Shown: piece after piece, positions 22,322 to 45,067 of the stretch
Position numbering within the stretch: the stretch's first letter is position 1
How the letters are laid out: the number at the start of each line of letters is the position of its first letter
Translations under genes and position numbers: made by a program
The notes under the pieces: model-generated
Seen by the model: the letters and a program-made list of their open reading frames with translations, nothing else
Told to the model about the DNA's origin: nothing
Databases searched by the model: none
Assembly (NCBI GenBank): GCA_036570185.1
Contig: DATCPH010000166.1
Location: 620-64,619 of the forward strand
From: Candidatus Limnocylindrales bacterium
GTDB taxonomy: Bacteria; Chloroflexota; Limnocylindria; Limnocylindrales; CSP1-4
DNA length: 64,000 nucleotides
Direction of reading: 5' to 3'

Positions 22322-23029
22322 GTGCTCGATGGCTTCAAGCTGGTCGTCTTCGACAAGGACGGCACCCTGATCGAATTCGATGCGATGTGGGGCGGTTGGC
22401 TGATCGCCCTCGCGCAGCGCCTCGAGGCGGACACCGGCCGCGCTCTCGACGATCAGCTTTTTGCCGCGTTCGGCTTCGACGCCTCCACGGGCCGACAAAC
22501 GCGGGGGAGCCGGCTCTCGGCCATGCCGATGGCGCGCCTGCGGGAGATCGGCGTCGACGTTCTCGCAGAGAGCGGCATGACCCGCGCCGCGGCCCTTACC
22601 GCGGTCGAGCGCCAGTGGCAGGCGCCCGATCCCGTCGCGCTGGCGCGGCCGCTGGCGCCGCTCCAGGAGCTCTTCCGCTCACTGAGAGGGGCCGGATCGA
22701 AGGTCGGTGTTGCGACGATCGACGATCGTGTCCCGACCGAGCGGACCCTCGACGCGCTCGGGGTCCGGGAGCTTGTCGATGGTCTCGCCTGTGCCGACGA
22801 TGGCCTGGCCGTCAAGCCCGCACCGGACATGGTTCTCCATCTCTGCCGCCAGCTCGGGGTCGATCCGGCCGACTCCGCGGTCATCGGGGATTCACCCTCC
22901 GACCTCGCCATGGGCCGGGCTGCCGGCGCGGGTTTCATCGTCGGCGTCCTGACAGGGGTCGGGTCCCGAGGGGAGCTGGCGCCGATCGCCGACGTCGTGG
23001 TGCCATCGATCGCCAGCCTATTGCCCTGA
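22322..23029 (+). CDS. HAD-superfamily hydrolase (phosphatase-like)
   Basis: The DxDGT motif is present (VVFDKDGTL), and GDSPSD motif IV is present. The GTG start at 22322 was chosen. The N-terminal extension in the ORF track overlaps the ATPase gene. Confidence 0.7.
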   Translation: MLDGFKLVVFDKDGTLIEFDAMWGGWLIALAQRLEADTGRALDDQLFAAFGFDASTGRQTRGSRLSAMPMARLREIGVDVLAESGMTRAAALTAVERQWQAPDPVALARPLAPLQELFRSLRGAGSKVGVATIDDRVPTERTLDALGVRELVDGLACADDGLAVKPAPDMVLHLCRQLGVDPADSAVIGDSPSDLAMGRAAGAGFIVGVLTGVGSRGELAPIADVVVPSIASLLP

Positions 23030-23184
23030 CAGCCGCGACGGGGCGATCGTTGTCTCGGGGCACCATTTCCCCGTTCCCACTGGTACTTTTGTCCCATCGC
23101 CGGGCACCGGCGGTCCCGTTACGCTCGGCGCTGCGCCTTATCCGGGGACTGGATCTGTTCCGGTCCGCGAAAACCCGGAGCCTC

Positions 23185-26100
23185 GTGCTCGGAACGTTGT
23201 GTGCGGAGGGCGCCGAGCGTGGAGGTGGGCGGCCCGATGGTCCTGGCAGGAGATCCTGCTCGCCCGAGACGATCGTGGATTCGCCCGCGGCCCCAACGAG
23301 ACGAGCGGGACGGCTCCGGCGCGGGGGGAGCCGCGACGCGAGCGCTGCACTTCGGCGGGTCGCTGCCGAACTGAGTGGCACGATCGACCTCCCGGCGCTG
23401 TTCGAGGACGTCCTCGACGAATCCGTTGAGCTCTTCGGAGCGGACCGTGCTGGCCTCTGGAAATACCACGGCGACCGCGGGCTGCCGTTCGAGCTCGCGA
23501 CGCACCGGGGGCTGCCCGACGACCTTCTCGCGGCCGCCCGCGCACTCCGTCGCGATAGCAAGTCGATCGGCCTCGAGGCGCTGCGCACTGGCACGGTGAG
23601 AGTCGTGCGCGAGCCAGGCACGCGAGGGTCGACCGCTGAGCTTCGCCGCGCGTTCCGAACCCACGACATCTCGACCATCTGCGTGGTGCCCGTCATCTTC
23701 CGTAACGAAGGACTCGGCCTGCTGGTCCTGTACCACACCCAGCCGCACGACTGGTCCACCGAGGAAACAGCTCTCGCGCGGAGCTTCGCCGACGGAATCG
23801 CGGCCGCAATGGCCAACGCCCGGCTGCTCGACTCGGTCGGCTCGTTGGCGGCACGGCTCCGAGCCATCCAGGACCTGGGGCTGAAGCTCAATCGGATCAG
23901 CGACATCGGGGGCATCGGGCGCGCCATCGTGGCCGAAGCGGGCGGCCTCATCGAATGCGACACGATCCGCGTTTACACGGTTGATCTTGCGTCGGGCTGG
24001 TGCGAGCCGATCGCGTTCCGCGGCCGCTTCTTGGGTTCCGACGAGCCGGCGACACAGCTGCTCAGGGTGCGGGTCGGCGAGGGGATCACCGGCTGGGTCG
24101 CCCAGCACAACGAACCGCTGATGGTCGGCAATGCGGGCGCCGACAGTCGCAGCGTGCTGCTCGGGTCCGCCGACGCTCCCGAGTCGATGCTCGCCGTCCC
24201 CATGACGTTCGACGACACCGTCCACGGCGTGATCGTTCTCTCCCGGCTCGGGATGGATCGGTTCAACCGCGACGATCGGTCGACCCTGATGATCTTCGCC
24301 GGCTACGCCTGTCAGGCGCTGGTCAATGCCCGAAACCTCGAGACGCTGAGCGGGCAACGTGAGGAGCTCGAGCTCAAGATGGCCAGCCAGCGCCGTCTCC
24401 TCGAGGTCAACGAGCGGCTCCTCTCAACGCTCGACCCGACGGAGGTCCTGGAGCTCATCGCCGACTCCCTCAAGACGGTGGTCAGCTACAACTCGCTCAC
24501 GATCTACGAGGCTGACCGCGAGCGTGACGTTCGGCGGGCCGTCGTCGCCCGCGACCGGTTCGCAGATCTCATCCTGGCCAACGAAGGACCCGTAGACCGC
24601 GGATTCACGGGCTGGGTCATTGCGCACGGCGAAGCGATCCTCGCCAATGAGGCCCATCTCGATCCTCGCGGGGCACAGATCCCGGGCACGCCGGTCGAGC
24701 CCGAAGCGATGATCGTGGTTCCGCTGATCGTCAACGCCAACGTCCGGGGAACGCTCAATGTCGCCCGGGTCGGCCCCGGGGAGGCCCCTTTCACCGAGAG
24801 CGAATTCGAGCTCGTGAAGCTCTTCGCCGGGCAGGCCTCGATCGCGCTCCAGAACGCCGAGGCGCACGGCGCGATCAAGGTCCTGGCCGAGCACGACGCG
24901 CTGACCGGACTTCTCAATCACGGCGCGTTCCAGCGCGAGCTGGGCGAAGCGATCACTTCCAGCGACGGACGGCCACTGGCGTTGATGATGATGGACCTGG
25001 ACGGCTTCAAGGCCTTCAACGACACGAACGGCCACCCCGACGGCGACGTCCTCCTGGCCGAGGTCTCGGAGCGAATCGTTGCCGCCGTCCGCGAGGGCGA
25101 CCGGATCTATCGCTACGGCGGTGATGAGTTCGCAGTCCTGCTGCCCGGCGCCAGCCGGGACACGGCGGCCGAGGTTGCCCAGCGGATCCGGGCGGCGATC
25201 GCCGGCCTCCCGGACCCCGTCATGGGACCCAAGATCTCGGTCAGCATCGGCGTCACGTGTTTCCCCGAAGACGGCCGCACGAAGCAGGACCTCGTCAAGG
25301 CGGCCGACCAGGCCCTCTACCTCGCGAAACCGTCGCTCAAGGCGGAGGTGTCCCTGCGTCGCGATCCCTATGTGGCCGCGCTCGACGAAACCGCCATCGC
25401 GCTGCACGACGGCAGCGAGCCGACCGAGCTATTGGGAACCATCCTCGACCGCGCCGCCCATCTCCTCGGAACCCAGCACGGATACGTGTACCTCGTCGAA
25501 CCGGACGAGCAGAGCCTCGTCGTCAGCGTCGGCATCGGCATGTTCACCGAGTACATCGGATATCGGCTGCCCGTTGCACAGGGCGTTGCGGGCGCCGTCT
25601 TCCGGACCGGTCGCTCCGTCGCGGTCGACGACTACGACACATTCTCGCGCCGGGCGGCCGACATGCCAAAAGGCGAATTCGGCGCCGTGGTGGGCGTACC
25701 CCTGACGTCGGGCGGGAAGGTGGTCGGCGTCATCGGCCTCGCGGCCGGCGACAGCCAGCGGACCTTCGGCAAGCGCGAAATCGGCGCGCTAGCCGGCTTT
25801 GCCCAGCTGGCTTCGATGGCACTCGACAACGACCGTCTCCAAGAGGCGGCCCAGCGCGGAGCCCTCTACGACCATGTGACCGGCCTCCCCAACCGCGAGC
25901 TGCTGACGGACCGCCTCGACCAGGCCCTGACGTGGACCAGCCCCGATGAACCGGGCCAGGTCGCGGTCGTGCTCGTCGACATCGACCGCTTCCGCGTGAT
26001 CGCCCAGAGTCTGGGACACGCCGCCGGAGATCGATTGCTGCTCAACGTCGGGCAGCGCCTCGTCGCCTCCGTGCGGCCGACCGACATCGTCGCCCGGATC

Positions 26101-27264
26101 GGCGGGGACGAGTTCGGCATCGTGCTGGCGTTGACCCACAGGGACGATCCCCGGCGCCTCGGCGATCGCATCGAAGCGGAGCTGAAGGCGCCGTTCGATC
26201 TCGACGGGCGGTCGTGGTTCGTCAGCGTCAGCATGGGCATCGCTCTGGGGTGGCCCGGGCGCACGTCCGCCTCAGAGGTTCTCAGGGAGGCGGCCATTGC
26301 GCTGGTGCGAGCCAAGTCGAACGGAACCCAGCGGAAGGTCGTCTTCGAGTCGGCGATGAGCGACGTCAGCCTGGCGCGCGTGGACCTCGAAAACGACCTC
26401 CGATCGGCGCTCGATCGTGGTGAGTTGAGCCTGGCCTACCAGCCGATCGTGGACCTCACGACCAACCGCGTCCTCGGATTTGAGGCCCTCTCGCGCTGGC
26501 GCCACCCGACGCGGGGCAATGTCCCGCCATCGACGTTCATCCCGCTCGCGGAGGAGAGCGGCTTGATCGTTCCGATTGGGCGCTGGGCGCTCGAATCGGC
26601 CTGCCGCCAAGCCGGGGCATGGCACGATGCGTTTCCAGGCTATCCCCTGATCATGAGCGTCAACCTGTCGCCGCGGGAGTTCATGAATCCAAGCCTCGTC
26701 GACGACGTGGCGGCCATCCTGGCCGACACCGGCATCGATCCGGCCACCCTCGAGCTCGAGATCACGGAGAGCGTCGCAATGGACGAGTCGGCTGAAGGGA
26801 CACGCGCCCTGCGCTCCTTGCGGGCCCTCGGTCCCCGCCTGGTCCTCGATGACTTCGGGACCGGCTACTCGTCGCTGTCCTACCTTCGGAACCTACCGCT
26901 CGACGCGATCAAGATCGATCAGACGTTCGTGACCGATCTCGGCGCGGGCGACCCGAACCTGCCCATCGTCCAGGCGATCATCGCCCTGACCCACGGCCTG
27001 GGGATCGATGTCGTGGCGGAAGGCATCACGACGGCGGCCAAGGCGCGGCGATTGCAGGCCCTCGGCTGCGACCGCGGGCAGGGTTATGCCTGGGCAAGGC
27101 CGATGCGCGCAGCCGCCGTCGAACGGATCCTTCGGCGCGGCCCGCTGGCGGCGCTTCCAACGACGGCGACCAGCGGCCGAGGCGGCTCGATCCGCACCTC
27201 GATCGCTCCGCTTCCGCGTAATCGACCCGGACGTCTCCGCGCCTTGGGGATGCCCGCGTCGTAG
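23185..27264 (+). CDS. Multidomain c-di-GMP signalling protein: GAF-GAF-GAF-GGDEF-GAF-GGDEF-EAL
   Basis: Two intact GGDEF motifs (RYGGDEF, RIGGDEF) are present. EAL motifs are intact (EALSRW, DDFGTGYSSL, KIDQTFV). Four GAF-like regions are present. The start is uncertain: GTG 23185, TTG 23197 or GTG 23275. The 5' 800 nt of the ORF-track model overlaps the HAD gene and is rejected. Confidence 0.8.
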   Translation: MLGTLCAEGAERGGGRPDGPGRRSCSPETIVDSPAAPTRRAGRLRRGGSRDASAALRRVAAELSGTIDLPALFEDVLDESVELFGADRAGLWKYHGDRGLPFELATHRGLPDDLLAAARALRRDSKSIGLEALRTGTVRVVREPGTRGSTAELRRAFRTHDISTICVVPVIFRNEGLGLLVLYHTQPHDWSTEETALARSFADGIAAAMANARLLDSVGSLAARLRAIQDLGLKLNRISDIGGIGRAIVAEAGGLIECDTIRVYTVDLASGWCEPIAFRGRFLGSDEPATQLLRVRVGEGITGWVAQHNEPLMVGNAGADSRSVLLGSADAPESMLAVPMTFDDTVHGVIVLSRLGMDRFNRDDRSTLMIFAGYACQALVNARNLETLSGQREELELKMASQRRLLEVNERLLSTLDPTEVLELIADSLKTVVSYNSLTIYEADRERDVRRAVVARDRFADLILANEGPVDRGFTGWVIAHGEAILANEAHLDPRGAQIPGTPVEPEAMIVVPLIVNANVRGTLNVARVGPGEAPFTESEFELVKLFAGQASIALQNAEAHGAIKVLAEHDALTGLLNHGAFQRELGEAITSSDGRPLALMMMDLDGFKAFNDTNGHPDGDVLLAEVSERIVAAVREGDRIYRYGGDEFAVLLPGASRDTAAEVAQRIRAAIAGLPDPVMGPKISVSIGVTCFPEDGRTKQDLVKAADQALYLAKPSLKAEVSLRRDPYVAALDETAIALHDGSEPTELLGTILDRAAHLLGTQHGYVYLVEPDEQSLVVSVGIGMFTEYIGYRLPVAQGVAGAVFRTGRSVAVDDYDTFSRRAADMPKGEFGAVVGVPLTSGGKVVGVIGLAAGDSQRTFGKREIGALAGFAQLASMALDNDRLQEAAQRGALYDHVTGLPNRELLTDRLDQALTWTSPDEPGQVAVVLVDIDRFRVIAQSLGHAAGDRLLLNVGQRLVASVRPTDIVARIGGDEFGIVLALTHRDDPRRLGDRIEAELKAPFDLDGRSWFVSVSMGIALGWPGRTSASEVLREAAIALVRAKSNGTQRKVVFESAMSDVSLARVDLENDLRSALDRGELSLAYQPIVDLTTNRVLGFEALSRWRHPTRGNVPPSTFIPLAEESGLIVPIGRWALESACRQAGAWHDAFPGYPLIMSVNLSPREFMNPSLVDDVAAILADTGIDPATLELEITESVAMDESAEGTRALRSLRALGPRLVLDDFGTGYSSLSYLRNLPLDAIKIDQTFVTDLGAGDPNLPIVQAIIALTHGLGIDVVAEGITTAAKARRLQALGCDRGQGYAWARPMRAAAVERILRRGPLAALPTTATSGRGGSIRTSIAPLPRNRPGRLRALGMPAS

Positions 27265-28666: not shown

Positions 28667-29050
28667 TCACCACATGAGGCCCGCGTCGCGCGGATCCCAT
28701 CGCTCAGCTAATAGCGTGATCTTCACTGGGTGATCGACGACCGATTCCGCCTGTTCCTTGACCTGCTGGATCATCGACCCGGCGTAGGGGCAGAACGGCG
28801 TGGTGAGGATCATCTTGATCTCGGATTCGTCCTTGCCGAGGATGACCTGCTTGATCAGGGCAAGCTCGACGACGTTCATCCCGATCTCGGGATCGACCAC
28901 CGCTCGCAGCGCGTCGAGGATCGCTAGCTCGGTGGCCCGGCGTTCGGCGTCGAAGAGGGGCGCCGCCGCTCCAGGCTCGCCGGTCGTGGTTTCCGAGGTG
29001 CTTGCCGTCGTGGGGCGTGCCTCTTCGGTAGTGCTGACGGTGTCGGTCAT
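28667..29050 (-). CDS. SufT/DUF59 (MIP18-family) Fe-S assembly factor
   Basis: DUF59 core motifs are present (VVDPEIG, TTPFCPYAG). The start at MTDTV was chosen. Confidence 0.7.
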   Translation of the reverse strand: MTDTVSTTEEARPTTASTSETTTGEPGAAAPLFDAERRATELAILDALRAVVDPEIGMNVVELALIKQVILGKDESEIKMILTTPFCPYAGSMIQQVKEQAESVVDHPVKITLLAERWDPRDAGLMW

Positions 29051-30439: not shown

Positions 30440-31330
30440 TCACGAGGCCGGCCCCGCGCGCACGAACGTCTCGCGATCCTCCCTGGCCCGCAGGGTCCAG
30501 GGCCCGGGCAGCCCCGCGCCGATCTCGTGACCCTCGAACCGTGTGACCGGGAGGATCCCGGCGACGCTGCTGGAGAGGAACGCCTCCTCGGCCTCGGCCA
30601 GGTCGCGCGTGGTGAGCAGGCCCTCGTGGCTCGCAAGTCCGGAGCGCCCCGCCCATCCGAGGATCCATGAACGCGTCGTCCCGGGCAGGATCGCGCAGTC
30701 AAGTGACGGCGTCGCAAGCTCGCCATCGCGGACCAGAAAGACGTTGGCTGAGGTCGCCTCCGAGACGTACCCATCGGTCGTGAGGAAGATCGCCTCGTCC
30801 GCGCCGACGCGCCGAGCCTCCAGCCTGGCGTAGACGTAATCGGCACGACTCGTCGTCTTGAGGTGGGCAAGGGGATTCTCCGGGTCGCGTCGAACGGAGC
30901 TCGCCACGACGTGCAATCCCACCTCGAGATGACTGCGGGGCGGCGGGACGACAGGCCACGCCTGGATGGCGATCGTTGCCGGGGCGGTCTCGTCCTGCGG
31001 CAGGAGCCCGCGCGCCATGAACGCCCCACGCGAGACCGTGATCCGGATCGATGCATCGCTGGTCACGCTTGCGAGCCCTTCGGCATCGAGGAGTGTGGCA
31101 ATTCCCACCTCGAGTGTCGTCTCGAACATGTCCGGCAGGACAATGGCCAACGCGCCCGCACTCGACTGGAGGCGCGCAAGATGCTCGACGAGCTCGATCG
31201 GATGGCCGGCCCGGGCGCGGAGCGTCTCGAAGACTCCGTCGCCGAGCTGGAAGCCGCGATCGAAGACCGAGAGGTGCGGTCCGTCGGCCGGCAACAGGCG
31301 ACCGTTGACCCAGACGTGTTGGGGTGCCAT
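30440..31330 (-). CDS. Class IV aminotransferase-fold enzyme (aminodeoxychorismate lyase PabC / BCAT-like)
   Basis: Fold IV PLP motifs are present (FETLRA, EATSANVF, AFLSSS). The start at MAPQHVWVNG was chosen. Confidence 0.75.
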   Translation of the reverse strand: MAPQHVWVNGRLLPADGPHLSVFDRGFQLGDGVFETLRARAGHPIELVEHLARLQSSAGALAIVLPDMFETTLEVGIATLLDAEGLASVTSDASIRITVSRGAFMARGLLPQDETAPATIAIQAWPVVPPPRSHLEVGLHVVASSVRRDPENPLAHLKTTSRADYVYARLEARRVGADEAIFLTTDGYVSEATSANVFLVRDGELATPSLDCAILPGTTRSWILGWAGRSGLASHEGLLTTRDLAEAEEAFLSSSVAGILPVTRFEGHEIGAGLPGPWTLRAREDRETFVRAGPAS

Positions 31331-31397
31331 CTCGAGGATTATCGTCCGAGCCGACCCCTCGCCGGACGCTGCGGCCCCTGCGTGGAATAATTCGCGG

Positions 31398-34300
31398 ATG
31401 GTCGCCTCCGGCGCCTCGAAGCTCGAGGCGGAGCCACCCTTCCCGCTCGGTGCCGCGGCGCTCTCAGAAGACGACGTCCTCCACCCGTTCACTCAGCCTC
31501 AGTGCTCCCTCGCCGTCCAGCTGCGGCGGGCGACCGGTGCGGTCGTCGGGCGTCCCGTCGAGTTGGAGGCGATCGACCAGGAGCTCGATTCCGGACGCAG
31601 GCATCTTGCGGCGGTCACGCTCGAGGGTGAGCCCGGGATCGGCAAGACGCGCCTGCTGGTTGCCGCGTCCGAGATCGCCGCCCGCAAGGAATTCACGTGC
31701 GTCGCCGTCACGGCCGATGAGGAGATCCGCGGACCGTTCCTGGTGGCCCAGAGCATCTTCGCCGCACCCGCCTTGCGGGCGGCAGTCGGGGGCACGCCAG
31801 CCGGCGAGGCAGTCGACCGTGCCTCGAACGCCATCTCGGGTCGCGACGAGGCCGGCTTCGAGGCGCTCCCGCCCGAGGGCAAGCTGCTCCGAACGTTCGA
31901 TCTGGCCTCCATCGCGCTCGCGCAGGCGGCCTCGGTCCAACCTCTGGCGCTCCTGATCGACGACGTGCAGTGGGCGGACGACGACACCCTCCGCATGCTC
32001 CGCTACGTCGCTCGGACCGACTCCGACCGTCCGATCTTCCTGCTGCTCGCAATCCGCCCAGATGAGGTCGCGTCGGTGACGGAGGCGGTGAACCTGATCG
32101 CCGATATGGAGCGGATGGGGCTGGTGCGCCGTCTGCGCCTTGGACGGTTCAACCAGCTCGAGACCGCCGAGCTCTGTCGCCGTGTTCTCGGCGCGACCAT
32201 TGAGCCGGCCTCGGCAGCAACACTTCACGCACAGGCGGAGGGGGTCCCATTCATCGTCGAGGAGCTGACTCGCACATACCGCGAGAACGGCATGCTCCAA
32301 CAGGTCGACGGCGTTTGGACACTGGCTCGCAACGCCGGCCGGCTGGTCCCGTCCGCCGTCCGAACCCTCATTCAGCGGCGGGCGGCTCGGTTGCCACAGG
32401 AAACCCGGGATGCGATGGGCGACGCGGCCCTGCTCGGACGGAGCTTCAGCCTTCGCGATCTGGGAGCCATCCGGCTTCGACTCGACGGATCAGAGGCTGC
32501 GCCCGGGCTGCTTGCCGAGGCGCTTGCTCCGGCCGCAGGAGCAGGCCTCCTGTTGGAACATCCGGAGAGCTCCGCTGCCGATTACACCTTCAGCCACGAG
32601 CAGGTCCGGGACTTCGCGATCGCAGGCCTGCCGCAGGCTCGCCGGCGCGCGGTACACGCCGCCATCGTCGAGCTCCTCGCGGGTGACGGCGAGCCTGCGC
32701 CTGCCAGTCTGCCGCTCCTCGCTCAGCATGCCCTGGCCGCCGGCGATCCTGAGCGGGCCGCCCGATTCTCGATCGAAGCCGCGCACGTCGCTCTCCAGTC
32801 GAACGCGCCTGAGGAAGCTCTCCGGATCGTGGAGCAGGCATTGCCCATCGTGTCGACGTCCCAGGAACGGCGAACGCTGCTCACCGCACGAGACGATGCC
32901 TATGCGGTCCTCCGCCGGGCGGCCGACCGGCTGGATGGATTGGCCGAGCTTGGAGCGCTCGCGGAGGCCCTGCGAGACTCCCATTTCGAGCTGGACGTCA
33001 TGCTCCGAAGGTCTGCCGCCCTGCGGCTCGCCGCCGAGCCGGATTCAGCAGCCGCGCTCGCCCGGCGCGTCCGGGGCCTGGCTGCCGAGCGCGGCGATGT
33101 GGCGGCGGAACTCGCGGCCTGCCTCGAGCTTGGCCAGGCGCTCCTTCGCTCGCCGCTCGGCGAGGGCTTTGGATCAGCCTCTGGCGAAGCCGACCTCGAT
33201 GGGGCCGAGGAAGCCTACCGCCGGGCCGCGGAGTTGGCCACCGAGCTCGGGGACGAGCGCGGCGTCGCGGCCGCGATCCGCGAGGTTGCGATGATTCTGC
33301 TGTCACGGGTGCGGGAATGGTTCGGCGAACAACTCCGTGCCGGGCGCGCGATGGAATTCGGCCAGCGACTCGCAGGCGGCGAGCAGCTCGACGACATGCT
33401 CCTGACCTTCCCGATCGCTCCGATGGTGGGCGAGATCAAGGGCCTCCTGGACAAGGCCCTCGGTATCTACGAGCGCCTCGGCGACCGGCGAGGTGTCATG
33501 TCCACCGTCATCGCCATGGCCTACACGAACTACGCCCCCATCATCCATTTCGCCTCGTCGGCTCGCCACATCGAGGAGATCCGGCGGGTGACGTCCCGCC
33601 TTTCATCGATGGTGACGGAAAGCGAGCGCGCCCGGCTCGAGTTGCAGATGCTCTACGGAGTCCACGTCTTCGCCCGGGCCAAGATCGTGCCGGACCTCGA
33701 GTTGGCCCGCGGCGAAGAGGCCTACCGCTCCGCCCAGATGGTGGGCGACCGCACGATCGAATTCCTGGCGGCGGGCGGAATGGCGCTCGCTCACATGGGT
33801 CTCGGCGAGATGGCGGAGGCGGAGGGCTGGCTGACTCGTGCCGGAAACGCGGCGGCGGTCGCGCCGACGACGGTCCGGGCGCGGCAGCTCGAAACCTGGC
33901 GCGGCATGGCCCGGGCTGCGGCTGGTGACGCGGCCGGCATGCGGAACCACCTCGAGCGCGCAGTCAAGATGGCCACGGATCAGGGAAACGCGGCCGCCCG
34001 ATGCGAGTCGCTGGCCCGATTGGCCATCGAATCCGCGCGGCTCGGCGCGCGGCTCCATGACGAGGAACTGCTGGCGCTGGCGGAACGCTCGGCGCTCGAG
34101 GCCAAGGAGTTGACGACCCTTCTCCCCGGACATGCACCGTGGGGCCCGCAGGCAGACGCAGCCCTTGCCGAAGTCGCGCTCGCCCGAAACCAGCCGGAGC
34201 GAGCCGTCGCCGCGGCAGGATCGGCGATCCAGGCCTTCCAGGAGGCGCTGCACGAGGACGTCAACCTGGACGTTCTGCTGATCGCCACTCGGGCCATCCT

Positions 34301-34694
34301 CGCGGGCGGTCCCCCGGATCTGCAGGCGATGATGCGCGGCTGGCTCCGCAGCATCCTTGCCGGGATCGCCCAGCGGACCATCGACGAAGACGTCCGGGTT
34401 CGCTGGATGCGGGGACCGCTGGGCCGCGAGCTCGTGGAATTGGCCGGCTCGCTGGATGGCCTCCAGACGGAACCGAGCAGCGACGGCCAGCCGGACGCGA
34501 TCGCCAACCTCGACGAAGAGGAGCGACGCCTGCTGCAGCTGCTCGCCGCCGGCAACACGAACCGGGAGATCGGGGCGGCCCTCGAGCTCTCGCCGGAAAC
34601 CGTTGCCCAGCAACTGGCCGGTCTCTTTGCCAAGATCGGCGCGTCGTCGCGAGCCGAGGCTACGTCGTTCGCGTTCCGGGGGCACCTCGTTTGA
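31398..34694 (+). CDS. LuxR-family large ATP-binding regulator (LAL: AAA/STAND + TPR-like + C-terminal LuxR HTH)
   Basis: A P-loop (GEPGIGKTRLL) is present. A long helical repeat region follows. The C-terminal HTH is LQLLAAGNTNREIGAALELSPETVAQQLAGLFAKIG. The start at 31398 is chosen downstream of the divergent pabC. The 5' 430 nt of the track ORF is rejected. Confidence 0.8.
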   Translation: MVASGASKLEAEPPFPLGAAALSEDDVLHPFTQPQCSLAVQLRRATGAVVGRPVELEAIDQELDSGRRHLAAVTLEGEPGIGKTRLLVAASEIAARKEFTCVAVTADEEIRGPFLVAQSIFAAPALRAAVGGTPAGEAVDRASNAISGRDEAGFEALPPEGKLLRTFDLASIALAQAASVQPLALLIDDVQWADDDTLRMLRYVARTDSDRPIFLLLAIRPDEVASVTEAVNLIADMERMGLVRRLRLGRFNQLETAELCRRVLGATIEPASAATLHAQAEGVPFIVEELTRTYRENGMLQQVDGVWTLARNAGRLVPSAVRTLIQRRAARLPQETRDAMGDAALLGRSFSLRDLGAIRLRLDGSEAAPGLLAEALAPAAGAGLLLEHPESSAADYTFSHEQVRDFAIAGLPQARRRAVHAAIVELLAGDGEPAPASLPLLAQHALAAGDPERAARFSIEAAHVALQSNAPEEALRIVEQALPIVSTSQERRTLLTARDDAYAVLRRAADRLDGLAELGALAEALRDSHFELDVMLRRSAALRLAAEPDSAAALARRVRGLAAERGDVAAELAACLELGQALLRSPLGEGFGSASGEADLDGAEEAYRRAAELATELGDERGVAAAIREVAMILLSRVREWFGEQLRAGRAMEFGQRLAGGEQLDDMLLTFPIAPMVGEIKGLLDKALGIYERLGDRRGVMSTVIAMAYTNYAPIIHFASSARHIEEIRRVTSRLSSMVTESERARLELQMLYGVHVFARAKIVPDLELARGEEAYRSAQMVGDRTIEFLAAGGMALAHMGLGEMAEAEGWLTRAGNAAAVAPTTVRARQLETWRGMARAAAGDAAGMRNHLERAVKMATDQGNAAARCESLARLAIESARLGARLHDEELLALAERSALEAKELTTLLPGHAPWGPQADAALAEVALARNQPERAVAAAGSAIQAFQEALHEDVNLDVLLIATRAILAGGPPDLQAMMRGWLRSILAGIAQRTIDEDVRVRWMRGPLGRELVELAGSLDGLQTEPSSDGQPDAIANLDEEERRLLQLLAAGNTNREIGAALELSPETVAQQLAGLFAKIGASSRAEATSFAFRGHLV

Positions 34695-35431
34695 GCACGA
34701 TCCGGACCCGGGTCGACCGCCACAAGTGCATCGGCGCCGGGAACTGCATCACGATCGCCCCGACCGCGTTCGACTGGTTGCGAGGCGATTTCGGCAAGGC
34801 CGATGTCGTAGGTGCGGACACCGTCGAGGAGGAGCTCCTGCGGGAAGCGGCGCTCGCCTGCCCGACCGGTGCGATCGAGATCGAAGAGATCGAGGAGCTG
34901 CTGCCCTGGCAGCTGCGAGGCAGGAGCGGACCGACCCGACGCGTCCTCAAGACCTTCATGTTCACGGATATCGTCGGCTCGACGAACCTCGTGGAAGCCC
35001 TCGGCGACGAAGCGTGGGAGACCCTCCTGCGCTGGCACGATCAAACGCTTCGGAGCACGTTCGTGGCCCACCAGGGGCAGGAGGTCGTGGCCACCGGCGA
35101 TGGATTCTTCGTCGGATTTGACTCGCCTGAGGCGGCCGCAGCGTGCGCCGTGGCGATCCAGCGCGGACTCGCCGATCACCGAAAGCAGCACGGCTTCGCG
35201 CCCCAGGTCCGGATCGGGATCCACGCGTCGGACGCGACCCAGGTCGGAACCAACTTCTCCGGCAAGGGCGTCCACGAGGCTGCCCGAATCGCCGCCCTCG
35301 CGGAAGGCGGCCAGATCCTGGCCAGCTCGAGGACACTTGCCGGCACCGAGCTCTCGACGTCCGACGCGAGGATGGTCACCCTCAAGGGCATCACAGAACC
35401 GATGGAGATCGTGACGATCGAGTGGCGTTGA
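34691..35431 (+). CDS. Fusion of a single-cluster ferredoxin domain with a class III nucleotidyl cyclase domain
   Basis: The N-terminus is an FdxD-like [3Fe-4S]/[4Fe-4S] ferredoxin signature (IRTRVDRHKCIGAGNCITIAP...LACPTGAI). The C-terminal cyclase homology domain carries FTDIVGST and ATGDGFF. A TTG start overlaps the TGA of the LAL gene as TTGA. Confidence 0.75.
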   Translation: MSTIRTRVDRHKCIGAGNCITIAPTAFDWLRGDFGKADVVGADTVEEELLREAALACPTGAIEIEEIEELLPWQLRGRSGPTRRVLKTFMFTDIVGSTNLVEALGDEAWETLLRWHDQTLRSTFVAHQGQEVVATGDGFFVGFDSPEAAAACAVAIQRGLADHRKQHGFAPQVRIGIHASDATQVGTNFSGKGVHEAARIAALAEGGQILASSRTLAGTELSTSDARMVTLKGITEPMEIVTIEWR

Positions 35432-36330
35432 CCGCGACAACGTTGCCGGTGCTGACCTGGGAAGAGTCGCGACCGACGATCGATACGCTCCGCCGCTACC
35501 TTCAGATCCTGGGGAAGATCAGGCTGGCGTCGTCACCGCCCAGGGAGCACTCCTGGAATGCCGGCTTGACCGTGACTCCACGCGGCCTCACGACCGGCCT
35601 CCTCCGCCACGGTGAGGACGACTTCGAGATCGAGCTGGACATGGTCGGGCATGCCATCTCCGCTCGCACGACGCGAGGGACGCTCGGGCGCGTCGAGATC
35701 GACGGGAGCGCGTCAGTCGCGTCCGTCTACGGCGGGCTCACCGAGATGCTGGCCGCGGATGGAATTCGGCCCACCATCCGACCCGTCCCGTATGGCCTTG
35801 CCGACACGACACCGTTCCCCGAGGATCTCGCCCCGCGGCCCTATGACCCGGCCTACATCGCAGGACTCTCCGAGGCGTTGCGGTTCGGCCACGCGGCCTT
35901 CAGCAAGTTCGCCGGCCGGGCGATCGTCAAGACAAGTCCGGTCTTCTTCTTCTGGCACAGCCTCGATCTCGTCCTCACCCGCCACCTGACGCGGCCCAAC
36001 GCCACGTCCACTGACGAGCCCCAGACTGAGGAGACGATCGCATTCGGCTTCTGGCCCGGCGACCTCGATTTCCCGCAGCCGAGCTTCTACTCGTACATGA
36101 CTCCAGAGCCACCTCGGGTGGCCGAGACGGCGCTGGCCGCCGGAGGCGTCTGGGCGCCGCAGGGTGACACTCACCTTGCCCTGCTCTCCTACGAGAACAT
36201 TCGGGCAAGCGAGGATCCGCACGGGCGCCTCCTTGATTTCCTCGACGGCGCCTACCAGGCGGAGGCACGCCTGGCCGCGTGGCCGGTCGACGCGCTTCGC
36301 TCCAAATGGAGTCCGGAACCACCGCCCTGA
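35428..36330 (+). CDS. Conserved hypothetical protein (about 300 aa), translationally coupled to the ferredoxin-cyclase gene
   Basis: A TTG start overlaps the TGA of the preceding gene. The 300-aa product has a non-biased composition. No catalytic motifs were recognised. Confidence 0.55.
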   Translation: MTATTLPVLTWEESRPTIDTLRRYLQILGKIRLASSPPREHSWNAGLTVTPRGLTTGLLRHGEDDFEIELDMVGHAISARTTRGTLGRVEIDGSASVASVYGGLTEMLAADGIRPTIRPVPYGLADTTPFPEDLAPRPYDPAYIAGLSEALRFGHAAFSKFAGRAIVKTSPVFFFWHSLDLVLTRHLTRPNATSTDEPQTEETIAFGFWPGDLDFPQPSFYSYMTPEPPRVAETALAAGGVWAPQGDTHLALLSYENIRASEDPHGRLLDFLDGAYQAEARLAAWPVDALRSKWSPEPPP

Positions 36331-36334
36331 TCGT

Positions 36335-37859
36335 TCAGCGCGGCGCGACGAGGGACTGGGAGCCACCGGCCTCCCTGACGGCGCCGATCTCGCGTCCGCC
36401 GAGCGCCTCCAGCGGACCCCGCGCCTTGGCGACCGTCTCGTCCCACTCGGCCGCCGCATCGCTTCGCCACGTGATCCCGCCACCGACGTGGAGGGTCAGC
36501 CGCTTGCCATCGGCGACGAAGGTACGGATCAGGATGCTCGTCTGCATGGCACCGTCGGGGCCGATCCAGCCGGCCGCGCCCGTGTACGGCCCGCGACGGA
36601 CCGGTTCGAGGCGCTCGAGGATCTGCATCGCGCGGATCTTCGGGGCCCCGGTGATGGAGCCACCGGGCAGCGCCGCTTTCAGCAGATCGAACGCGTCGAG
36701 GCCCCGCGCGAGGCGGCCCGTGACCGTCGACACCAGGTGCTGGACCGCAGCGGTGCGCTCGAGCCGGCACAGGCGGGGGACGCGGACGCTCCCCGGCCGG
36801 CAGACGCGGCCGAGGTCGTTGCGGAGGACGTCGACGATCATCACGTTCTCGGCGCGGTCCTTCGCGCTCGAGAGTAGCTCGCGCGCCAGCGCTCGGTCCT
36901 CCTCACCGCTCTTGCCCCTTGGCCGTGTCCCCTTGATCGGGTCGGTCGATACCCGCCCGTCCCGACCAACGGCGAGAAATGGTTCGGGCGACGCCGACAG
37001 GATCGCTCTCGGGGCGCCCGACCACGGCTGCGGCCCGAGGTCGAGATAGGCTGAAAAGAGGGCCGGATCGCCCGTCCGGAGCCGCCGGTAGAGCGGCCAC
37101 GGATCCCCGTCGAATTCCGCCTCGAGACGGCGCGTCAGGTTCGCCTGATAGAGCTCCCCCGCCGCGATCGAGGCTCGACACGAAATCGAGCGGAGCCGCC
37201 ATGTGTCGCGCCGGTGGGGCTTGCTGGAACCGGGGACCGGCCGATCCGGATCGCGGGTCCGCGCCGTCGATGAGTTCGGTGAGGCGTTCGCGGACGTCGG
37301 CGAGGCGCCGGCGGAGCCGGTCGAGGTTACCCCGGAATGCGCGCCCGCCCAACCATGCCCGCCCCTCGTGGCGATCCCAGGCGATGACCCAGTCGTGCAG
37401 CGCGAGCCGGACGGGAGGCAGGTCCTGGTCGGCGGGGACGGTTTCGGGCAGGCGCTCCAGTCGCCGGCCGGCGTCATAGCCGATGAACCCGACGAGGCCG
37501 CCAATGAATGGCGGCCCCGGCGATGAGGGTGCGACGAACCCAGGCCCGCCAGAGGGAGCGCCCTCGACGGCTGAACCGTCGAGCTGCGCGAGAAGGCGGC
37601 GCGCGCCGGCGAACGGATCCGGCCCGTCCGCCAGTGAATCGAGGACCGCCAGCGGATCCGCCGTGAGGTAGCTCCAGCGGGCGTTCCGTCCCGGTCGGGC
37701 GCTCTCGAGCAGGGCCATCCCGGGAAGATCCCGGAACGCCTCGGCAACGTCGATCGGGCGCATGCGCGCGAGGCCTGGAAGGTCGTCGAGGGATCCGACC
37801 CAGACCGTGTCTGGCCCGGCCGCGGTCGGCGGCTGAGGAGTCGCAAGCGCGGGAGTCAT
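36335..37859 (-). pseudogene. Aminodeoxychorismate/anthranilate synthase component I (PabB/TrpE family) split across two frames near 37150-37185
   Basis: The N-terminal half (MTPALATP ... FVSSLDR) is in one frame. The C-terminal chorismate-binding half (IAAGELYQANL ... GAPK ... GGGI) is in another. The two halves overlap at the nucleotide level beside a C5/G5 run. Confidence 0.7.
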
Positions 37860-38015: not shown

Positions 38016-38876
38016 TCAGACCGCGACCGCGACCGCCTTCTCGATCGGCACGCCGACCATGCTGCCCCACTCGGTCCAGCTGCCGTCGTAATTGCGGACC
38101 CGCCGGTAGCCAAGGAGCTCGTGCAGGACGAACCACGAATGCGATGATCGCTCGCCGATTCGGCAGTAGGCGATGACGTCCTTGTCGGGCGTCACGCCCT
38201 TCGCTTCGTAGATCGTCGCCAGCTCCTCCCGACTCTTGAACGTGCCGTCCTCGCGGACGGTCTGAGCCCAGGGGATCGACGCGGCCCCGGGGATGTGGCC
38301 GGCCCGCTGGGCCGTCTCGCTCATGCCCGCCGGCGCGATGATCTCGCCGTTGTACTCGGCTGGGCTGCGAACGTCGACGAGGACCAGGGACGCATCGTCC
38401 AGCCGAGGGAGGATGTCATCCCGGAATGCCCGGAGGCTGAAATCGGGATCGCCCAACCCGTAGCCGGTTGGCTCGAACGACGGAGCGTCCGTTGAGAGCG
38501 GCAGGCCCTGGTCCAGCCAGTACTTGCGACCGCCGTTGAGGATCACCGCGTTCGTGTGGCCGTATAGCTGGAGTTGCCAGTACGCCCATGCCGCGAACCA
38601 GTTGTTGTTGTCGCCGTAGAGGACGACCGTGGTATCGGGGCCGATCCCGCTGCGGCTCAGGAGCTCGCTGAACTCCTCGCGGCCGGCGATGTCGCGCCGG
38701 ATCCCGTCGGCCAGCTGGCTTGTCCAGTTCCAGCCGACGGCGCCGGGGATGTGACTCTGCTCGTAGGCCGTGGTGTCGACGTCGACCTCGACGAATCGGA
38801 CAGCCGGGTCATCGAGGTGGGCCTGCGCCCAGTCGGCATCGACGAGGGCATCGGTTGCGTAGCCGGGAACGCTCAT
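38016..38876 (-). CDS. Thiosulfate/3-mercaptopyruvate sulfurtransferase (tandem rhodanese, SseA/CysA-like)
   Basis: Two rhodanese domains are present. The catalytic loop is CRIGERSS. The start at MSVPGYATD was chosen. Confidence 0.85.
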   Translation of the reverse strand: MSVPGYATDALVDADWAQAHLDDPAVRFVEVDVDTTAYEQSHIPGAVGWNWTSQLADGIRRDIAGREEFSELLSRSGIGPDTTVVLYGDNNNWFAAWAYWQLQLYGHTNAVILNGGRKYWLDQGLPLSTDAPSFEPTGYGLGDPDFSLRAFRDDILPRLDDASLVLVDVRSPAEYNGEIIAPAGMSETAQRAGHIPGAASIPWAQTVREDGTFKSREELATIYEAKGVTPDKDVIAYCRIGERSSHSWFVLHELLGYRRVRNYDGSWTEWGSMVGVPIEKAVAVAV

Positions 38877-39062
38877 CGTTCGTGCTCCTTTGGTGGATCT
38901 CGTCTCGTGGATCTCATCGGATTGATGTCGTGGGGTCGTCGTGTCGGGCAAGGTCGGGGCGGCGGGTCGGAATGCGGACGACGATCTCGCGCGGGCGCGC
39001 TCTGTGCTCAGCTGGATCGGGCCCGCTTCGGACACCCGCAGCGGCCCAGGTTGCTCGCTGAC

Positions 39063-42013: not shown

Positions 42014-45000
42014 TCAGGGGGCCAGGCCGGCTCTCTCCGCGACCATCGCCGCCTCGACCCGATTCGAGACGCCGAGCTTGTCGAGGATGTGCGTGACATG
42101 AACCGCGGCCGTCTTGCGGCTGATGAAGAGCCGCTCGGCGATATCGCCGTTCGACATTCCCGCCGCCACCAGCTTCAGGACTTCCACCTCACGGAGGGAT
42201 AACCCCAGGACCTGGCCGGCCTCCGGGGTCAATGTCCCCGAAGCGGGCTGGAGAGGGGCGACGTCCGATCGGCTCGCCGCCGGTGCCAGGCCGAGATCGA
42301 TCCGGGCTCGGGCGGCCAGCCTCTCGATCGATTCCGCGAGTGGGCGGGCCGAAAGCCGCATCGCCACCTCGTGGGCCGTCCGAAGCTTCGCCCCGACGTC
42401 GGCGCGTACCCCCGTCCGTCGCAACTCCGCTTCGGCGAGGCGGAACCGGGCGATGGCCGCCCGGTACGGGTCGGGCACCGCGTCCCAGGCTTCCGCGGCA
42501 GCCAACCAGGTCGCCGGATCGGACTCGCCGTCCAGGCGGCCATGTTCGGCGGCCGCGGCCACGATCCAGGCCCGGGCCGTGGCCGTGACGGCCCTGGCGG
42601 CCAAGGGTTCTCGCATCGCCTCCAGCCGTGCCCCGGTGGCGAGGGCGGCTGCCAGCAGCTCACCGCGATGCGTCGCCCGGGCGAATTCGGCCTCGTCTGC
42701 CGCTGACCGCATGCCGACCCCGATCAACGGCGCCATCCAGAAGAGGTCGTCCAGGCCCGTCATCGCCTCGATGCCTCCCTCGATGGCCGCAGCGGCCTGG
42801 TCAGGATGGCCCGCGGCTAGTGCCGTCTCGGCCTTCGAGATCGCGAGATCGGCGATCTGGTCCGCGTCGGCACCCCCGGTTTCCAGGTCCGCGAGCCGGG
42901 CTCGGGCGCGATCGACGTCGCCGCGCCATGCCTCGAGACGGCCTCGGATGGTCCGAAGGTACATGGTCCCCGCGCGCGCCGGGACGAGTCCCAGGGCCGT
43001 GCCGGTCACCTCGTCTGCCTCGTCCCAGCGTCCCTGGCGCAACAGGATGTCACCGGCGAGGGCAGAGAGGTCGAGGCCGTAGCGGCGCTCGAGACCGGTC
43101 CGCCGGGCCTCCGCGAGACCCGCCTCCGCCTCTGCGAGTGCCTCCTCGAATCGGTCGGCAAGCAGCAACGCCAGGGCGAGATTGTGATGAGCGATCATCA
43201 GGATGTCGGGCGGCCGAGCGTCCCTCTCGATTCCCTCGGCAATTGCCCTGGCGCGCCGCAGCTCGTCGAGGCCGGCCTCGATCTCGCCCATTGCAACGAG
43301 GTCCGAGCCGAGCAGGTTCCGAGCCCGACTCTCCTCGACCCGGGCTCCAGCCGCCACGGCACATTCGACGGCGGCCAGCGAGACATCACGCGATTCGGCC
43401 CAGTGGGCCGCTCCCATCAGGGCGCCCCCGAGGCCGGCCAGGACCCTCGCGCGAGCCGCGGTCGGTGGCTGGTCGGGAACGAGTTGAACGGCCTGCCGAT
43501 GGTGGTCCAGGGCAGCCTCCCCGCGTTCTGAGGCCCACAGGAGGTAGCCGAGGCGACCGTGCAGGAATCCGGCCGTCGCCGGGCTGGCAGCCGGGTCGAC
43601 CATCGCGAGGGCCTCCCGCGTGAGGGCCATCGCCCGATCGAACTCCCGCGCCAGATCGGCCTCGTCGGCCGCGCGACGCCGAAGGGACAGCGCTTCGCTC
43701 GTCGAGAGCCGCTCGCCGGTCGGCAGGGAGGCCTCGAGCTCCAGCGCCTTCTCGAAATGCCGGTGGGCATCGCCGTGGGCGTGGACGGTCGCCGCCGCAG
43801 CGGCGGCGTCAAGCGACGCTCCGAACGCCTCGGTTGATCGACCGGCGGCAAGCCAATGATGGGCAAGCTCGGCGGCGGCACCCGCAGCGGTCGGATCGGC
43901 AAGGTCGGGGCGGGCCCCCAGGGCCCCAGCGAATCGTTCGTGGAGTGCCCGCCGTTCGCCCGGCAGCAGCTCCGTTTCGACGGCCTCCCTGAGGAGCTCG
44001 TGGCGGAAGCGGTACCGGCCACTTGCCTTTTCGATGGCAATCACGCCGTGTGACATCGCCTCGCGCAGGCGCTCGTCCACGACGACCTCGTCGATCTCGA
44101 GGACGTCAGCCATCAGGCGCTCATCGACGGGTCGGCCGGCAACAGCGACGGCTGCGATCACCCGGCGGGCATCCGCAGAAAGAGCCGCGATCCTGGTCAA
44201 CAGCATCCCGTCGAGGGTCGCGGGCCGATCGTCGGAGCCGCCTGTCGACGACGCCGAAAACAGCTCCTCGACGAACATCGGGTTGCCTTCCGAGCGATGC
44301 CAGATGCGGTCCACGAGCTCGTCCTGCGGAGCCTGCCCCGCGATCGATTCCAGCTGACGTCGGACGTCGTCCCGACCGAGGCGCACCAGGTCGATCCTGC
44401 CACTGCCCGGCACCCTGCCGACCTCGGCAAGCCAGGTAAGGATCGGATCATCGGGAGCCAGCGCATCGAGCCGCATCGTCAGGACACCGACGACCCGTTC
44501 GACGGTCAGGTTTCGAGCAAGGAAGCGGAGCATGTCGCGTGTCGCGTTGTCGATCCAGTGGATGTCTTCAATCACGACGAGGGTCGGAGCGGCCTCGCCC
44601 AGCCGGCTGACGAGTTGGAGCATCCGCTCGAACAGCATCTGCTGGCTGAGGTCGGACGGGCGGATCGTGGTGGGGGCCTCCAGCGGCGAGCTCTCGGCCG
44701 GGCTCGCCGACGTGGCCTCCGCGAGTTCCGGAAGGATCGCGGCGAGGTCCGCGCGACCCGGCCCAAGCAGCGCATCGAGCTCGACGGCTGAGGTCCGCCG
44801 CACGAGCGACCGAAGCGCCTCGGCGAGCGGCAGGTAGGGCAGGCCGCCGTCGCCGATATCCAGACAGCCTCCGGTCAGCACCCGCCAGCCGTCGGTCCGG
44901 GCTCGGTCGGCTGCGGCCTCGATCAGGCGCGTCTTGCCGATCCCCGCTTCTCCCCCGACGATCAGGAGCCGCGGACGCCCCGCAGCGGCATCGGCTCGGG

Positions 45001-45067
45001 CTTCATCGACCTGGGCGAGATCGCGTTCTCGCCCGATCAGCTCGGTGCTGGTCTCGCGGCCTGCCAT
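42014..45067 (-). CDS. LuxR-family large ATP-binding regulator (LAL: AAA/STAND + TPR-like + LuxR HTH)
   Basis: A P-loop (GGEAGIGKTRLI) is present. The C-terminal HTH is VLKLVAAGMSNGDIAERLFISRKTAAVHVTHILDKLG. Confidence 0.85.
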   Translation of the reverse strand: MAGRETSTELIGRERDLAQVDEARADAAAGRPRLLIVGGEAGIGKTRLIEAAADRARTDGWRVLTGGCLDIGDGGLPYLPLAEALRSLVRRTSAVELDALLGPGRADLAAILPELAEATSASPAESSPLEAPTTIRPSDLSQQMLFERMLQLVSRLGEAAPTLVVIEDIHWIDNATRDMLRFLARNLTVERVVGVLTMRLDALAPDDPILTWLAEVGRVPGSGRIDLVRLGRDDVRRQLESIAGQAPQDELVDRIWHRSEGNPMFVEELFSASSTGGSDDRPATLDGMLLTRIAALSADARRVIAAVAVAGRPVDERLMADVLEIDEVVVDERLREAMSHGVIAIEKASGRYRFRHELLREAVETELLPGERRALHERFAGALGARPDLADPTAAGAAAELAHHWLAAGRSTEAFGASLDAAAAAATVHAHGDAHRHFEKALELEASLPTGERLSTSEALSLRRRAADEADLAREFDRAMALTREALAMVDPAASPATAGFLHGRLGYLLWASERGEAALDHHRQAVQLVPDQPPTAARARVLAGLGGALMGAAHWAESRDVSLAAVECAVAAGARVEESRARNLLGSDLVAMGEIEAGLDELRRARAIAEGIERDARPPDILMIAHHNLALALLLADRFEEALAEAEAGLAEARRTGLERRYGLDLSALAGDILLRQGRWDEADEVTGTALGLVPARAGTMYLRTIRGRLEAWRGDVDRARARLADLETGGADADQIADLAISKAETALAAGHPDQAAAAIEGGIEAMTGLDDLFWMAPLIGVGMRSAADEAEFARATHRGELLAAALATGARLEAMREPLAARAVTATARAWIVAAAAEHGRLDGESDPATWLAAAEAWDAVPDPYRAAIARFRLAEAELRRTGVRADVGAKLRTAHEVAMRLSARPLAESIERLAARARIDLGLAPAASRSDVAPLQPASGTLTPEAGQVLGLSLREVEVLKLVAAGMSNGDIAERLFISRKTAAVHVTHILDKLGVSNRVEAAMVAERAGLAP

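Follow-up and report, generated by a model that had tools for sequence, protein, structure and literature searches.

A ferredoxin-linked class III cyclase conserved next to a STAND/LuxR regulator in uncultured Actinomycetota and Chloroflexota: a candidate iron-sulphur-gated signalling enzyme

Does a class III cyclase homology domain (CHD) that lacks two canonical catalytic-site residues still make a cyclic nucleotide, and what would a ferredoxin fused to its N-terminus contribute? The question is raised by an open reading frame (ORF) encoding a 246-residue ferredoxin-CHD protein, hereafter Fd-CHD. It lies in a stretch of 64,000 nucleotides from Candidatus Limnocylindrales bacterium (GenBank assembly GCA_036570185.1, contig DATCPH010000166.1, positions 620 to 64,619), which is the whole stretch analysed and is called the window below. 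A preliminary description of this DNA had offered three readings of the protein: a cyclase of altered nucleotide specificity, a regulatory pseudo-cyclase, or a cyclase gated by an iron-sulphur (Fe-S) cluster or by redox state. Our analysis argues for a catalytically competent CHD, from the pattern of its conserved residues, and adds a fact absent from that description, namely an obligatory upstream partner gene for a STAND/LuxR regulator. Among the three readings the Fe-S- or redox-gated cyclase appears the most plausible.

The ORF is not a chance one: full-length two-domain relatives occur in at least 311 genomes (one genome per GTDB species was scanned) and fill the best 120 protein matches, all with both domains and 73-82% identity. 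Its TTG start overlaps by four nucleotides the end of the upstream gene, which stops at TGA (tTTGA), and an independent gene call chose the same start for an identical protein on a 123-kb contig of the Joint Genome Institute (JGI), L001. Relatives are 244-246 residues long and align from residue 1-4 on, and every alternative start further downstream would cost the first β-strand of the ferredoxin domain. That domain begins at residue 8, leaving no room for a membrane anchor in the 246 residues. In Pfam, Fer4_13 (38.5 bits, cut-off 24.5) and Guanylate_cyc (PF00211; 32.1 bits, cut-off 21.9) both passed their curated thresholds, and an NCBIfam profile for the cyclase part of LipJ matched at 1.7e-32. 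The closest solved structures were Ma1120 of Mycobacterium avium (1e-24) and Rv1900c/LipJ of M. tuberculosis (7e-22) for the CHD, and the Thermotoga maritima ferredoxin (1.5e-7) for the N-terminus. An AlphaFold 2 model built from 61 family sequences gave the CHD a predicted local distance difference test (pLDDT) score of 85-98, and Foldseek compared this domain with both Ma1120 and Rv1900c at a target-normalised template-modelling score of about 0.9 (E 1e-16).

To assign the catalytic residues, we aligned Fd-CHD pairwise with Ma1120 and with Rv1900c in HMMER, and made a MAFFT alignment that also included the two other CHDs of the window; all were concordant (Ma1120 numbering after PMC4215837). 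The two metal-binding aspartates recognised in the preliminary description are D93 (FTDIVGST) and D137 (TGDGF), which align with the Asp pairs of both reference enzymes, and the phosphate loop FTDIVxST is kept. The canonical lysine and asparagine are indeed absent from their positions. The residue first given for the lysine position, Ala134, resulted from a one-residue slip, as the K-x-x-G-D template laid properly on V-A-T-G-D falls on Val133, the second valine of EVVATGD. This valine faces K101 in Ma1120 (VVKSQGD), an asparagine in Rv1900c (EVNTAGD) and the lysine of both other CHDs in the window, which, as had been stated, are canonical at both positions. The second base-specifying position, an aspartate in Ma1120 (D157) and in Rv1900c (GTDVAG), is Asn188, and V133/N188 is found instead of the adenine-selecting Lys/Asp pair or the GTP-type Glu/Cys pair. 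The asparagine position is His195 (GVHEAAR), in agreement with the earlier reading; it aligns with a histidine in Rv1900c (VAVHIGAR) and with A164 in Ma1120 (RNVAMAAR), and the transition-state arginine is kept as Arg199, counterpart of Ma1120 R168. The canonical Asn-Arg pair is therefore replaced by a His-Arg variant known as active. The 2005 EMBO J report of the Rv1900c structure by Sinha and colleagues is said to find N342 and H402 dispensable. Rv1900c is an active adenylyl cyclase with histidine at the asparagine position, so that asparagine is not required (PMC4886424), and Ma1120 is active with alanine there, its activity being drastically reduced by the A164N mutation (PMC4215837).

Family conservation was counted in an alignment of 118 Fd-CHD sequences. 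D93, D137, H195, R199, F91-T92, S97-T98, G136, G138-F139, R174 and G193-V194 are invariant, and position 232 is lysine in 111 sequences and arginine in 7. Position 133 is occupied by V (72), S (23), T (9), G (6) or A (3), and position 188 by N (95), D (15), S (5) or Q (2). Because it varies within the family, position 133 probably makes no selected base contact; an invariant catalytic core combined with a drifting lysine position suggests an active enzyme in which the base is not recognised through this residue. For the wider clade, 1.84 billion representatives of 50%-identity clusters were searched exhaustively with HMMER; 352 of them matched at E <1e-30, and the best 150 were scored for residues. 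D93 is kept in 147 of the 147 aligned representatives, D137 in 145 and R199 in 143. Histidine occupies the asparagine position in 131 of 146 aligned representatives and asparagine in only 11. The lysine position is D (68), K (27), N (14), S (10), V (7) or others, and the aspartate position D (64), G (31), N (14), A (10) or others. By these alignments the odd catalytic residues of Fd-CHD are normal for the Rv1900c/Ma1120-like cyclase clade.

True Fd-CHD proteins form essentially one cluster at 50% identity. Several representatives (P0121-P0123, P0127, P0132 and P0134) looked like degenerate paralogues that had lost D137, H195 or R199, and were rejected as true variants because they are frameshifted: an Arg-rich, out-of-frame middle returns to frame at ...LKGISEPIEVVxVDWR and mimics degenerate or fused forms. 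The same sequences were also rejected as natural LuxR-Fd-CHD fusions, some of them being read through from the LuxR gene. As a separate observation on the best 150 representatives, the commonest exact residue set at the two base-specifying positions is Asp/Gly with histidine (25); Lys/Asp totals 27 if its His form (18) and Asn form (9) are pooled. The Asp/Gly pair is reminiscent of Glu/Gly in the guanylyl cyclase Cya2 and may represent an unstudied specificity class carried on STAND regulators.

The cluster motif of the ferredoxin half is C13-I-G-A16-G-N-C19 ... C57-P58 (C13-x2-A16-x2-C19-x37-C57-P58), in which C13, A16, C19, C57 and P58 are invariant in the 118 sequences, as are G15, G17, N18, R10 and other ferredoxin residues. 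A16 takes the place of the second cysteine of T. maritima CIGCGVC, of an aspartate in Pyrococcus furiosus and of a histidine in HaPuxC of Rhodopseudomonas palustris. The single-cluster ferredoxin type proposed in the preliminary description holds; its specifically actinobacterial affinity does not, the best matches being ferredoxins of Thermotoga, Pyrococcus and Rhodopseudomonas. The linker core LLPWQLR is also invariant in the 118 sequences, and the linker segment IEEL..W showed a weak alignment to the N-terminus of Ma1120 in its full-length form (4wp3). This N-terminal segment of Ma1120 is reportedly autoinhibitory, in a 2015 study by Barathy and colleagues, and the weak likeness is a hint that the linker of Fd-CHD may be so too. 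The motif CXXA/GXXC(X)nCP is that of [3Fe-4S] ferredoxins and CXXCXXC(X)nCP that of [4Fe-4S] ferredoxins (PMC6237146). By its Fer4_13/Fer4_15 matches and its motif the domain classes with the [3Fe-4S] single-cluster ferredoxins, and it is predicted to bind such a cluster.

We then asked with what Fd-CHD is associated on the genome. The upstream gene encodes a protein with an AAA_16 NTPase domain (residues 49-215), a long helical, TPR-like middle and a GerE/LuxR helix-turn-helix (HTH; residues 1040-1092) in Pfam, and its residues 166-583 match the STAND part of a TOMM kinase/cyclase fusion in NCBIfam. On the JGI contig with the identical Fd-CHD the order is AAA_16...GerE (1098 residues), Fd-CHD and DUF5996, with overlapping stops and starts. 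The neighbourhood was surveyed at 80 related loci, the best 80 of the 311 genomes. In 79 of them a full-length orthologue of the partner (50-66% identity) immediately precedes the Fd-CHD gene in the same orientation, and the remaining locus has only 168 nucleotides of upstream DNA. In nearly all related loci the two genes overlap by 1-4 nucleotides or are separated by at most 16. A tblastn search with ten flanking proteins of the window and an all-versus-all clustering of flanking ORFs found no other conserved neighbour in the 80 loci: none has DUF5996 or any of nine further window neighbours, and no redox-enzyme partner (cytochrome P450 or reductase) is conserved nearby. Since the partner is upstream in 79 of the 80 loci and nothing else is conserved, the conserved unit is exactly two genes, the STAND/LuxR regulator and Fd-CHD. 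The DUF5996 gene, kept beside Fd-CHD on four near-identical JGI contigs, lies outside this module although apparently co-translated with it in the window.

The module is also reflected in fused proteins. The closest CHD relatives (50-63% identity) are nearly all C-terminal domains of bigger proteins; among 25 relatives of at least 800 residues, AAA_16 was found in 22, TPR_12 in 13, GerE in 6 and BTAD with Trans_reg_C in 2. One metagenomic protein, P0129, has the architecture AAA_16 ... GerE(911-964)-CHD(999-1145). It thus joins in one chain, ordered as at the locus, what the two genes encode apart from the ferredoxin. Against the window regulator, its NTPase region is 30% identical over 448 residues and its HTH 41%. 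Such Rosetta-stone fusions, together with the module combination of the mycobacterial mclx proteins described below, support a functional link between cyclase and regulator, for which two candidate forms are considered below.

The best 80 of the 311 genome relatives are 67-81% identical to Fd-CHD and all come from metagenome-assembled genomes (MAGs). Their labels are mostly Actinomycetota (Gaiellaceae, Solirubrobacterales, "Actinomycetes") or Chloroflexota (Limnocylindrales, Dehalococcoidia, "Chloroflexia"), with few others. Mean identity is 75% within Actinomycetota-labelled and 74% within Chloroflexota-labelled sequences, and 68% between the two; the neighbour-joining order mostly keeps the two labels apart. 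This last value, high even between phylum labels, indicates that Fd-CHD evolves very slowly, under strong constraint along its whole length. An ancient transfer between Actinomycetota and Chloroflexota is possible. In databases the protein is named just "class 3 adenylate cyclase" or "4Fe-4S domain-containing protein". One MAG, CAVQUN01, carries two full LuxR/STAND plus Fd-cyclase modules on separate contigs (L031 and L066).

Table 1. Positions in the window of the two-gene module, its key residues and the downstream gene.
Feature	Position	Strand	Support
Partner STAND/LAL-type regulator gene, 1098 residues	31398..34694	+	Pfam, NCBIfam, orthologues upstream in 79/80 loci
Fd-CHD gene, 246 residues	34691..35431	+	ORF, Pfam, JGI gene call
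Single-cluster ferredoxin domain, residues 8-63	34712..34879	+	Fer4_13 1.9e-9, Fer4_15 2e-7
Ferredoxin motif codons	C13 34727-34729, A16 34736-34738, C19 34745-34747, C57-P58 34859-34864	+	
Inter-domain linker, residues 64-87, core L70-L71-P72-W73-Q74-L75-R76	34880..34951	+	Conservation counts
Class III CHD, residues 88-233	34952..35389	+	Guanylate_cyc 1e-7, PDB alignments, Foldseek
CHD codons, metal-binding Asp pair and lysine position	D93 34967-34969, V133 35087-35089, D137 35099-35101	+	
CHD codons, aspartate, asparagine and arginine positions (K232 also key)	N188 35252-35254, H195 35273-35275, R199 35285-35287	+	
DUF5996 gene, 302 residues	35422..36330	+	Pfam DUF5996 2.7e-74; 10-nucleotide overlap with the Fd-CHD stop

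On this basis, we propose that Fd-CHD is a soluble two-domain signalling enzyme, composed of a [3Fe-4S]-type ferredoxin, a rigidly conserved linker and a CHD of the Rv1900c/Ma1120 clade. The ferredoxin domain would carry a [3Fe-4S] cluster, and the CHD, as a homodimer, would cyclise a nucleotide, most likely ATP to cyclic AMP (cAMP), with relaxed base selectivity by analogy with Rv1900c and Rv0386. The redox state or integrity of the cluster, reporting oxygen, oxidants, nitric oxide or iron supply, would modulate the CHD through the linker. The cyclase and its co-translated STAND/LuxR regulator would form one functional unit, in one of two ways: either the cyclase docks on the regulator, as a split form of a single-chain STAND-(LuxR)-CHD protein in which oligomerisation brings the CHDs together, or it makes the nucleotide to which the regulator responds. 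We give this composite model, an Fe-S-gated and probably adenylyl cyclase acting with a STAND/LuxR regulator, an even chance of being correct as a whole; cluster binding and catalysis are the parts in which we have more confidence, gating the part in which we have less.

Several points weigh against it. [3Fe-4S] ferredoxins are classically electron carriers and not sensors, and a change in their redox state causes only a small structural change. In the AlphaFold 2 model the ferredoxin domain and the linker have a pLDDT of about 50, and the domain interface is unreadable. The preference for ATP is extrapolated from enzymes of the Rv1900c/Rv0386 type, as the lysine position has no lysine and the aspartate position is mostly asparagine. 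The coupling to the LuxR partner rests on adjacency and fusions and not on interaction evidence. Finally, no biochemical data on any family member were found in the literature searched, the coverage of which was incomplete.

If the CHD is active, the ferredoxin could still be something other than a sensor: it might have a structural role, serve in dimerisation or docking, or be the vestige of an electron carrier. The STAND/LuxR partner alone would then regulate the cyclase, through an oligomerisation driven by ligand and ATP that brings the CHDs together. Most close CHD relatives are indeed regulated-looking STAND fusions devoid of ferredoxin, the partner is kept in 79 of the 80 loci, and [3Fe-4S] ferredoxins normally carry electrons (PMC6237146). 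A mere spacer, however, would not be as constrained as this domain, in which three cysteines, the alanine, the proline and many surface residues are invariant along with the linker, and no P450 or reductase is conserved nearby; we regard this explanation as rather unlikely. A more elaborate scheme would make Fd-CHD the detachable, Fe-S-controlled effector subunit of a STAND signalosome, in which docking on the oligomerised LuxR/STAND regulator depends on the state of the cluster and induced proximity there dimerises the CHDs to produce a cyclic nucleotide, possibly not cAMP. We think this scheme improbable. If true, Fe-S gating would be seen for the first time in a class III cyclase, on an apoptosome-like bacterial platform joining redox, transcription and second messenger.

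The chemistry of the CHD leaves two other explanations to be weighed. V133/N188 with His195 could specify a guanylyl, pyrimidine or promiscuous cyclase whose main product is not cAMP. The adenine-selecting lysine is absent and the aspartate position mostly asparagine, Rv0386 has a guanylyl cyclase side activity of 20% (PMC4452763), Rv1900c is purportedly dual (PMC4886424), and the PycC profile matched weakly (E 1.5e-4). Yet position 133 is free to vary (V/S/T/G/A) in a family otherwise 70-80% identical, the glutamate of guanylyl cyclases is missing, the PycC match is at the level of any CHD and no Pycsar effector gene is adjacent, and the nearest solved relatives are adenylyl cyclases. In V133/N188 the protein resembles the mycobacterial cyclases of relaxed specificity and gives no impression of a new specificity of its own. 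A main product other than cAMP seems unlikely to us. The anti-phage Pycsar reading itself was discarded, the PycC match being generic (19 bits) and no effector gene (TIR or transmembrane) being conserved next to Fd-CHD. A regulatory pseudo-cyclase, in which the CHD serves the LuxR/STAND protein as a non-catalytic nucleotide-binding or protein-interaction subunit, is favoured by the two of six canonical catalytic positions that are non-canonical and by the view that Mclx2 and Mclx3 of M. tuberculosis lack needed residues (PMC4452763). Against it stand the metal Asp pair, arginine, histidine and phosphate loop, all invariant, and the nearly invariant K/R232, and the family members that seemed degenerate are frameshifted sequences. 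Moreover, Rv1900c and Ma1120 are active with histidine and alanine, respectively, at the asparagine position (PMC4886424, PMC4215837), and histidine is the state of 131 of 146 representatives; a pseudo-cyclase is for these reasons very improbable. The Fe-S-gated, probably adenylyl, cyclase remains our preferred reading.

The surroundings of the module are particular to this DNA. FeS_assembly_P, rhodanese, PabB-like and DUF5996 genes were considered as module members and rejected, being present locally in this window only. The window flanks contain the FeS_assembly_P gene at 28667-29050 (-), an Aminotran_4 gene at 30440-31330 (-), a chorismate-binding, PabB-like gene at 36335-37807 (-) and the rhodanese gene at about 38016-38920 (-), none conserved beside the module elsewhere. 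A scan of 31000-36600 detected no promoter or terminator, a result that is uninformative in DNA of 69% GC. The 64-kb window is unusually rich in signalling genes, with a cyclic di-GMP protein, three CHD genes and two LAL regulators. A convergent cyclase-STAND pair comprises a zinc-ribbon-CHD-AAA_16-TPR protein of 1175 residues at 3086-6613 (+), which matched the PycC profile moderately (2.7e-18), and a CHD-NB-ARC-winged-helix protein of 882 residues at 6733-9381 (-). The very large cyclic di-GMP protein at 22387-27264 (+) has four GAF domains, GGDEF in two stretches and EAL, and a second AAA_16-TPR-GerE regulator of LAL type (1017 residues) at 42014-45067 (-) has no adjoining cyclase gene. Beyond about 37.8 kb (at about 37.8-38.0 kb) gene coordinates are offset by 44 nucleotides between the window and JGI contig L001. 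Both encode the same Fd-cyclase, yet the offset shows them to be close variants and not one sequence.

Known controls of class III cyclases are light, haem-bound gases, bicarbonate, pH, lipids and G proteins. The literature searched, which is incomplete and gives no proof of absence, provided no characterised case of an Fe-S cluster controlling one of them, and no description of a soluble [3Fe-4S]-type Fd-CHD family, of its extreme conservation across two soil phyla or of its obligatory pairing with one STAND/LuxR regulator. The histidine substitution, the association of CHD, STAND and LuxR modules and the ferredoxin-CHD fusion as a concept are already known. Fd-CHD is small, soluble, extremely conserved and widespread in abundant uncultured soil Actinomycetota and Chloroflexota, and with its partner it offers a compact two-protein system in which to ask whether redox or iron status feeds cyclic-nucleotide signalling. 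Should the ferredoxin be only structural, the finding would shrink to another domain combination of a known cyclase clade.

Comparison with known systems places each part of the module. Rv1900c and Ma1120 (PDB 1ybt/1ybu, 4wp3-4wpa, 5d0e-5d15) have the same metal Asp pair and arginine as Fd-CHD, and Rv1900c, like Fd-CHD, has histidine at the asparagine position and no lysine (an asparagine instead). They differ in the specificity pair, which is Val/Asn in Fd-CHD, Asn/Asp in Rv1900c and Lys/Asp in Ma1120, and in the N-terminal partner: Fd-CHD has a ferredoxin, Rv1900c an α/β-hydrolase and Ma1120 a short segment. The single-cluster [3Fe-4S] ferredoxins, such as the actinobacterial P450 partners, HaPuxC (4id8) and the P. 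furiosus and T. maritima proteins, belong to the same Fer4_13/Fer4_15 fold family and share the motif with alanine at the second ligand (PMC6237146); they are free-standing electron carriers, usually encoded beside P450 or reductase genes, whereas the ferredoxin of Fd-CHD is fused to a signalling enzyme. A ferredoxin directly N-terminal to a class III CHD is also found in the 30 membrane-anchored, ferredoxin-linked class IIIb adenylate cyclases with six transmembrane helices (6TM) of α- and β-proteobacteria (R. palustris Q132R4), for which a redox input was predicted by sequence analysis only (Beltz et al. 2016, PMC4821796). Those proteobacterial enzymes have a cytochrome-b-like, haem-binding 6TM anchor; Fd-CHD has none, being soluble, and belongs to the Rv1900c-like clade, paired with a LuxR/STAND regulator.

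The closest parallels to the whole module are fusions of a CHD to a STAND regulator. The AAA_16-(TPR)-GerE-CHD, BTAD-AAA_16-CHD and TPR-CHD proteins from metagenomes (P0129, P0160 and P0125) have CHDs 55-63% identical to that of Fd-CHD, with the same histidine, and the STAND regulator N-terminal to the CHD as in the order of the two locus genes; they differ in being single, uncharacterised polypeptides without ferredoxin. The mclx proteins of M. tuberculosis (Rv0386, Rv1358, Rv2488c) combine CHD, AAA/NB-ARC and LuxR in one chain (PMC4452763) and thereby share three modules with Fd-CHD and its partner, namely the class III CHD, an NTPase of the STAND type and the LuxR HTH. In mclx the CHD is N-terminal in a single polypeptide, whereas in our locus it follows the LuxR HTH on a separate downstream gene, with a ferredoxin added and no CHD in the partner; this sets the pair apart from mclx by architecture. 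The role of CHDs on STAND transcription factors such as the mclx proteins is a question on which this system also bears, and the Fd-CHD/partner pair may work like an mclx protein divided over two genes.

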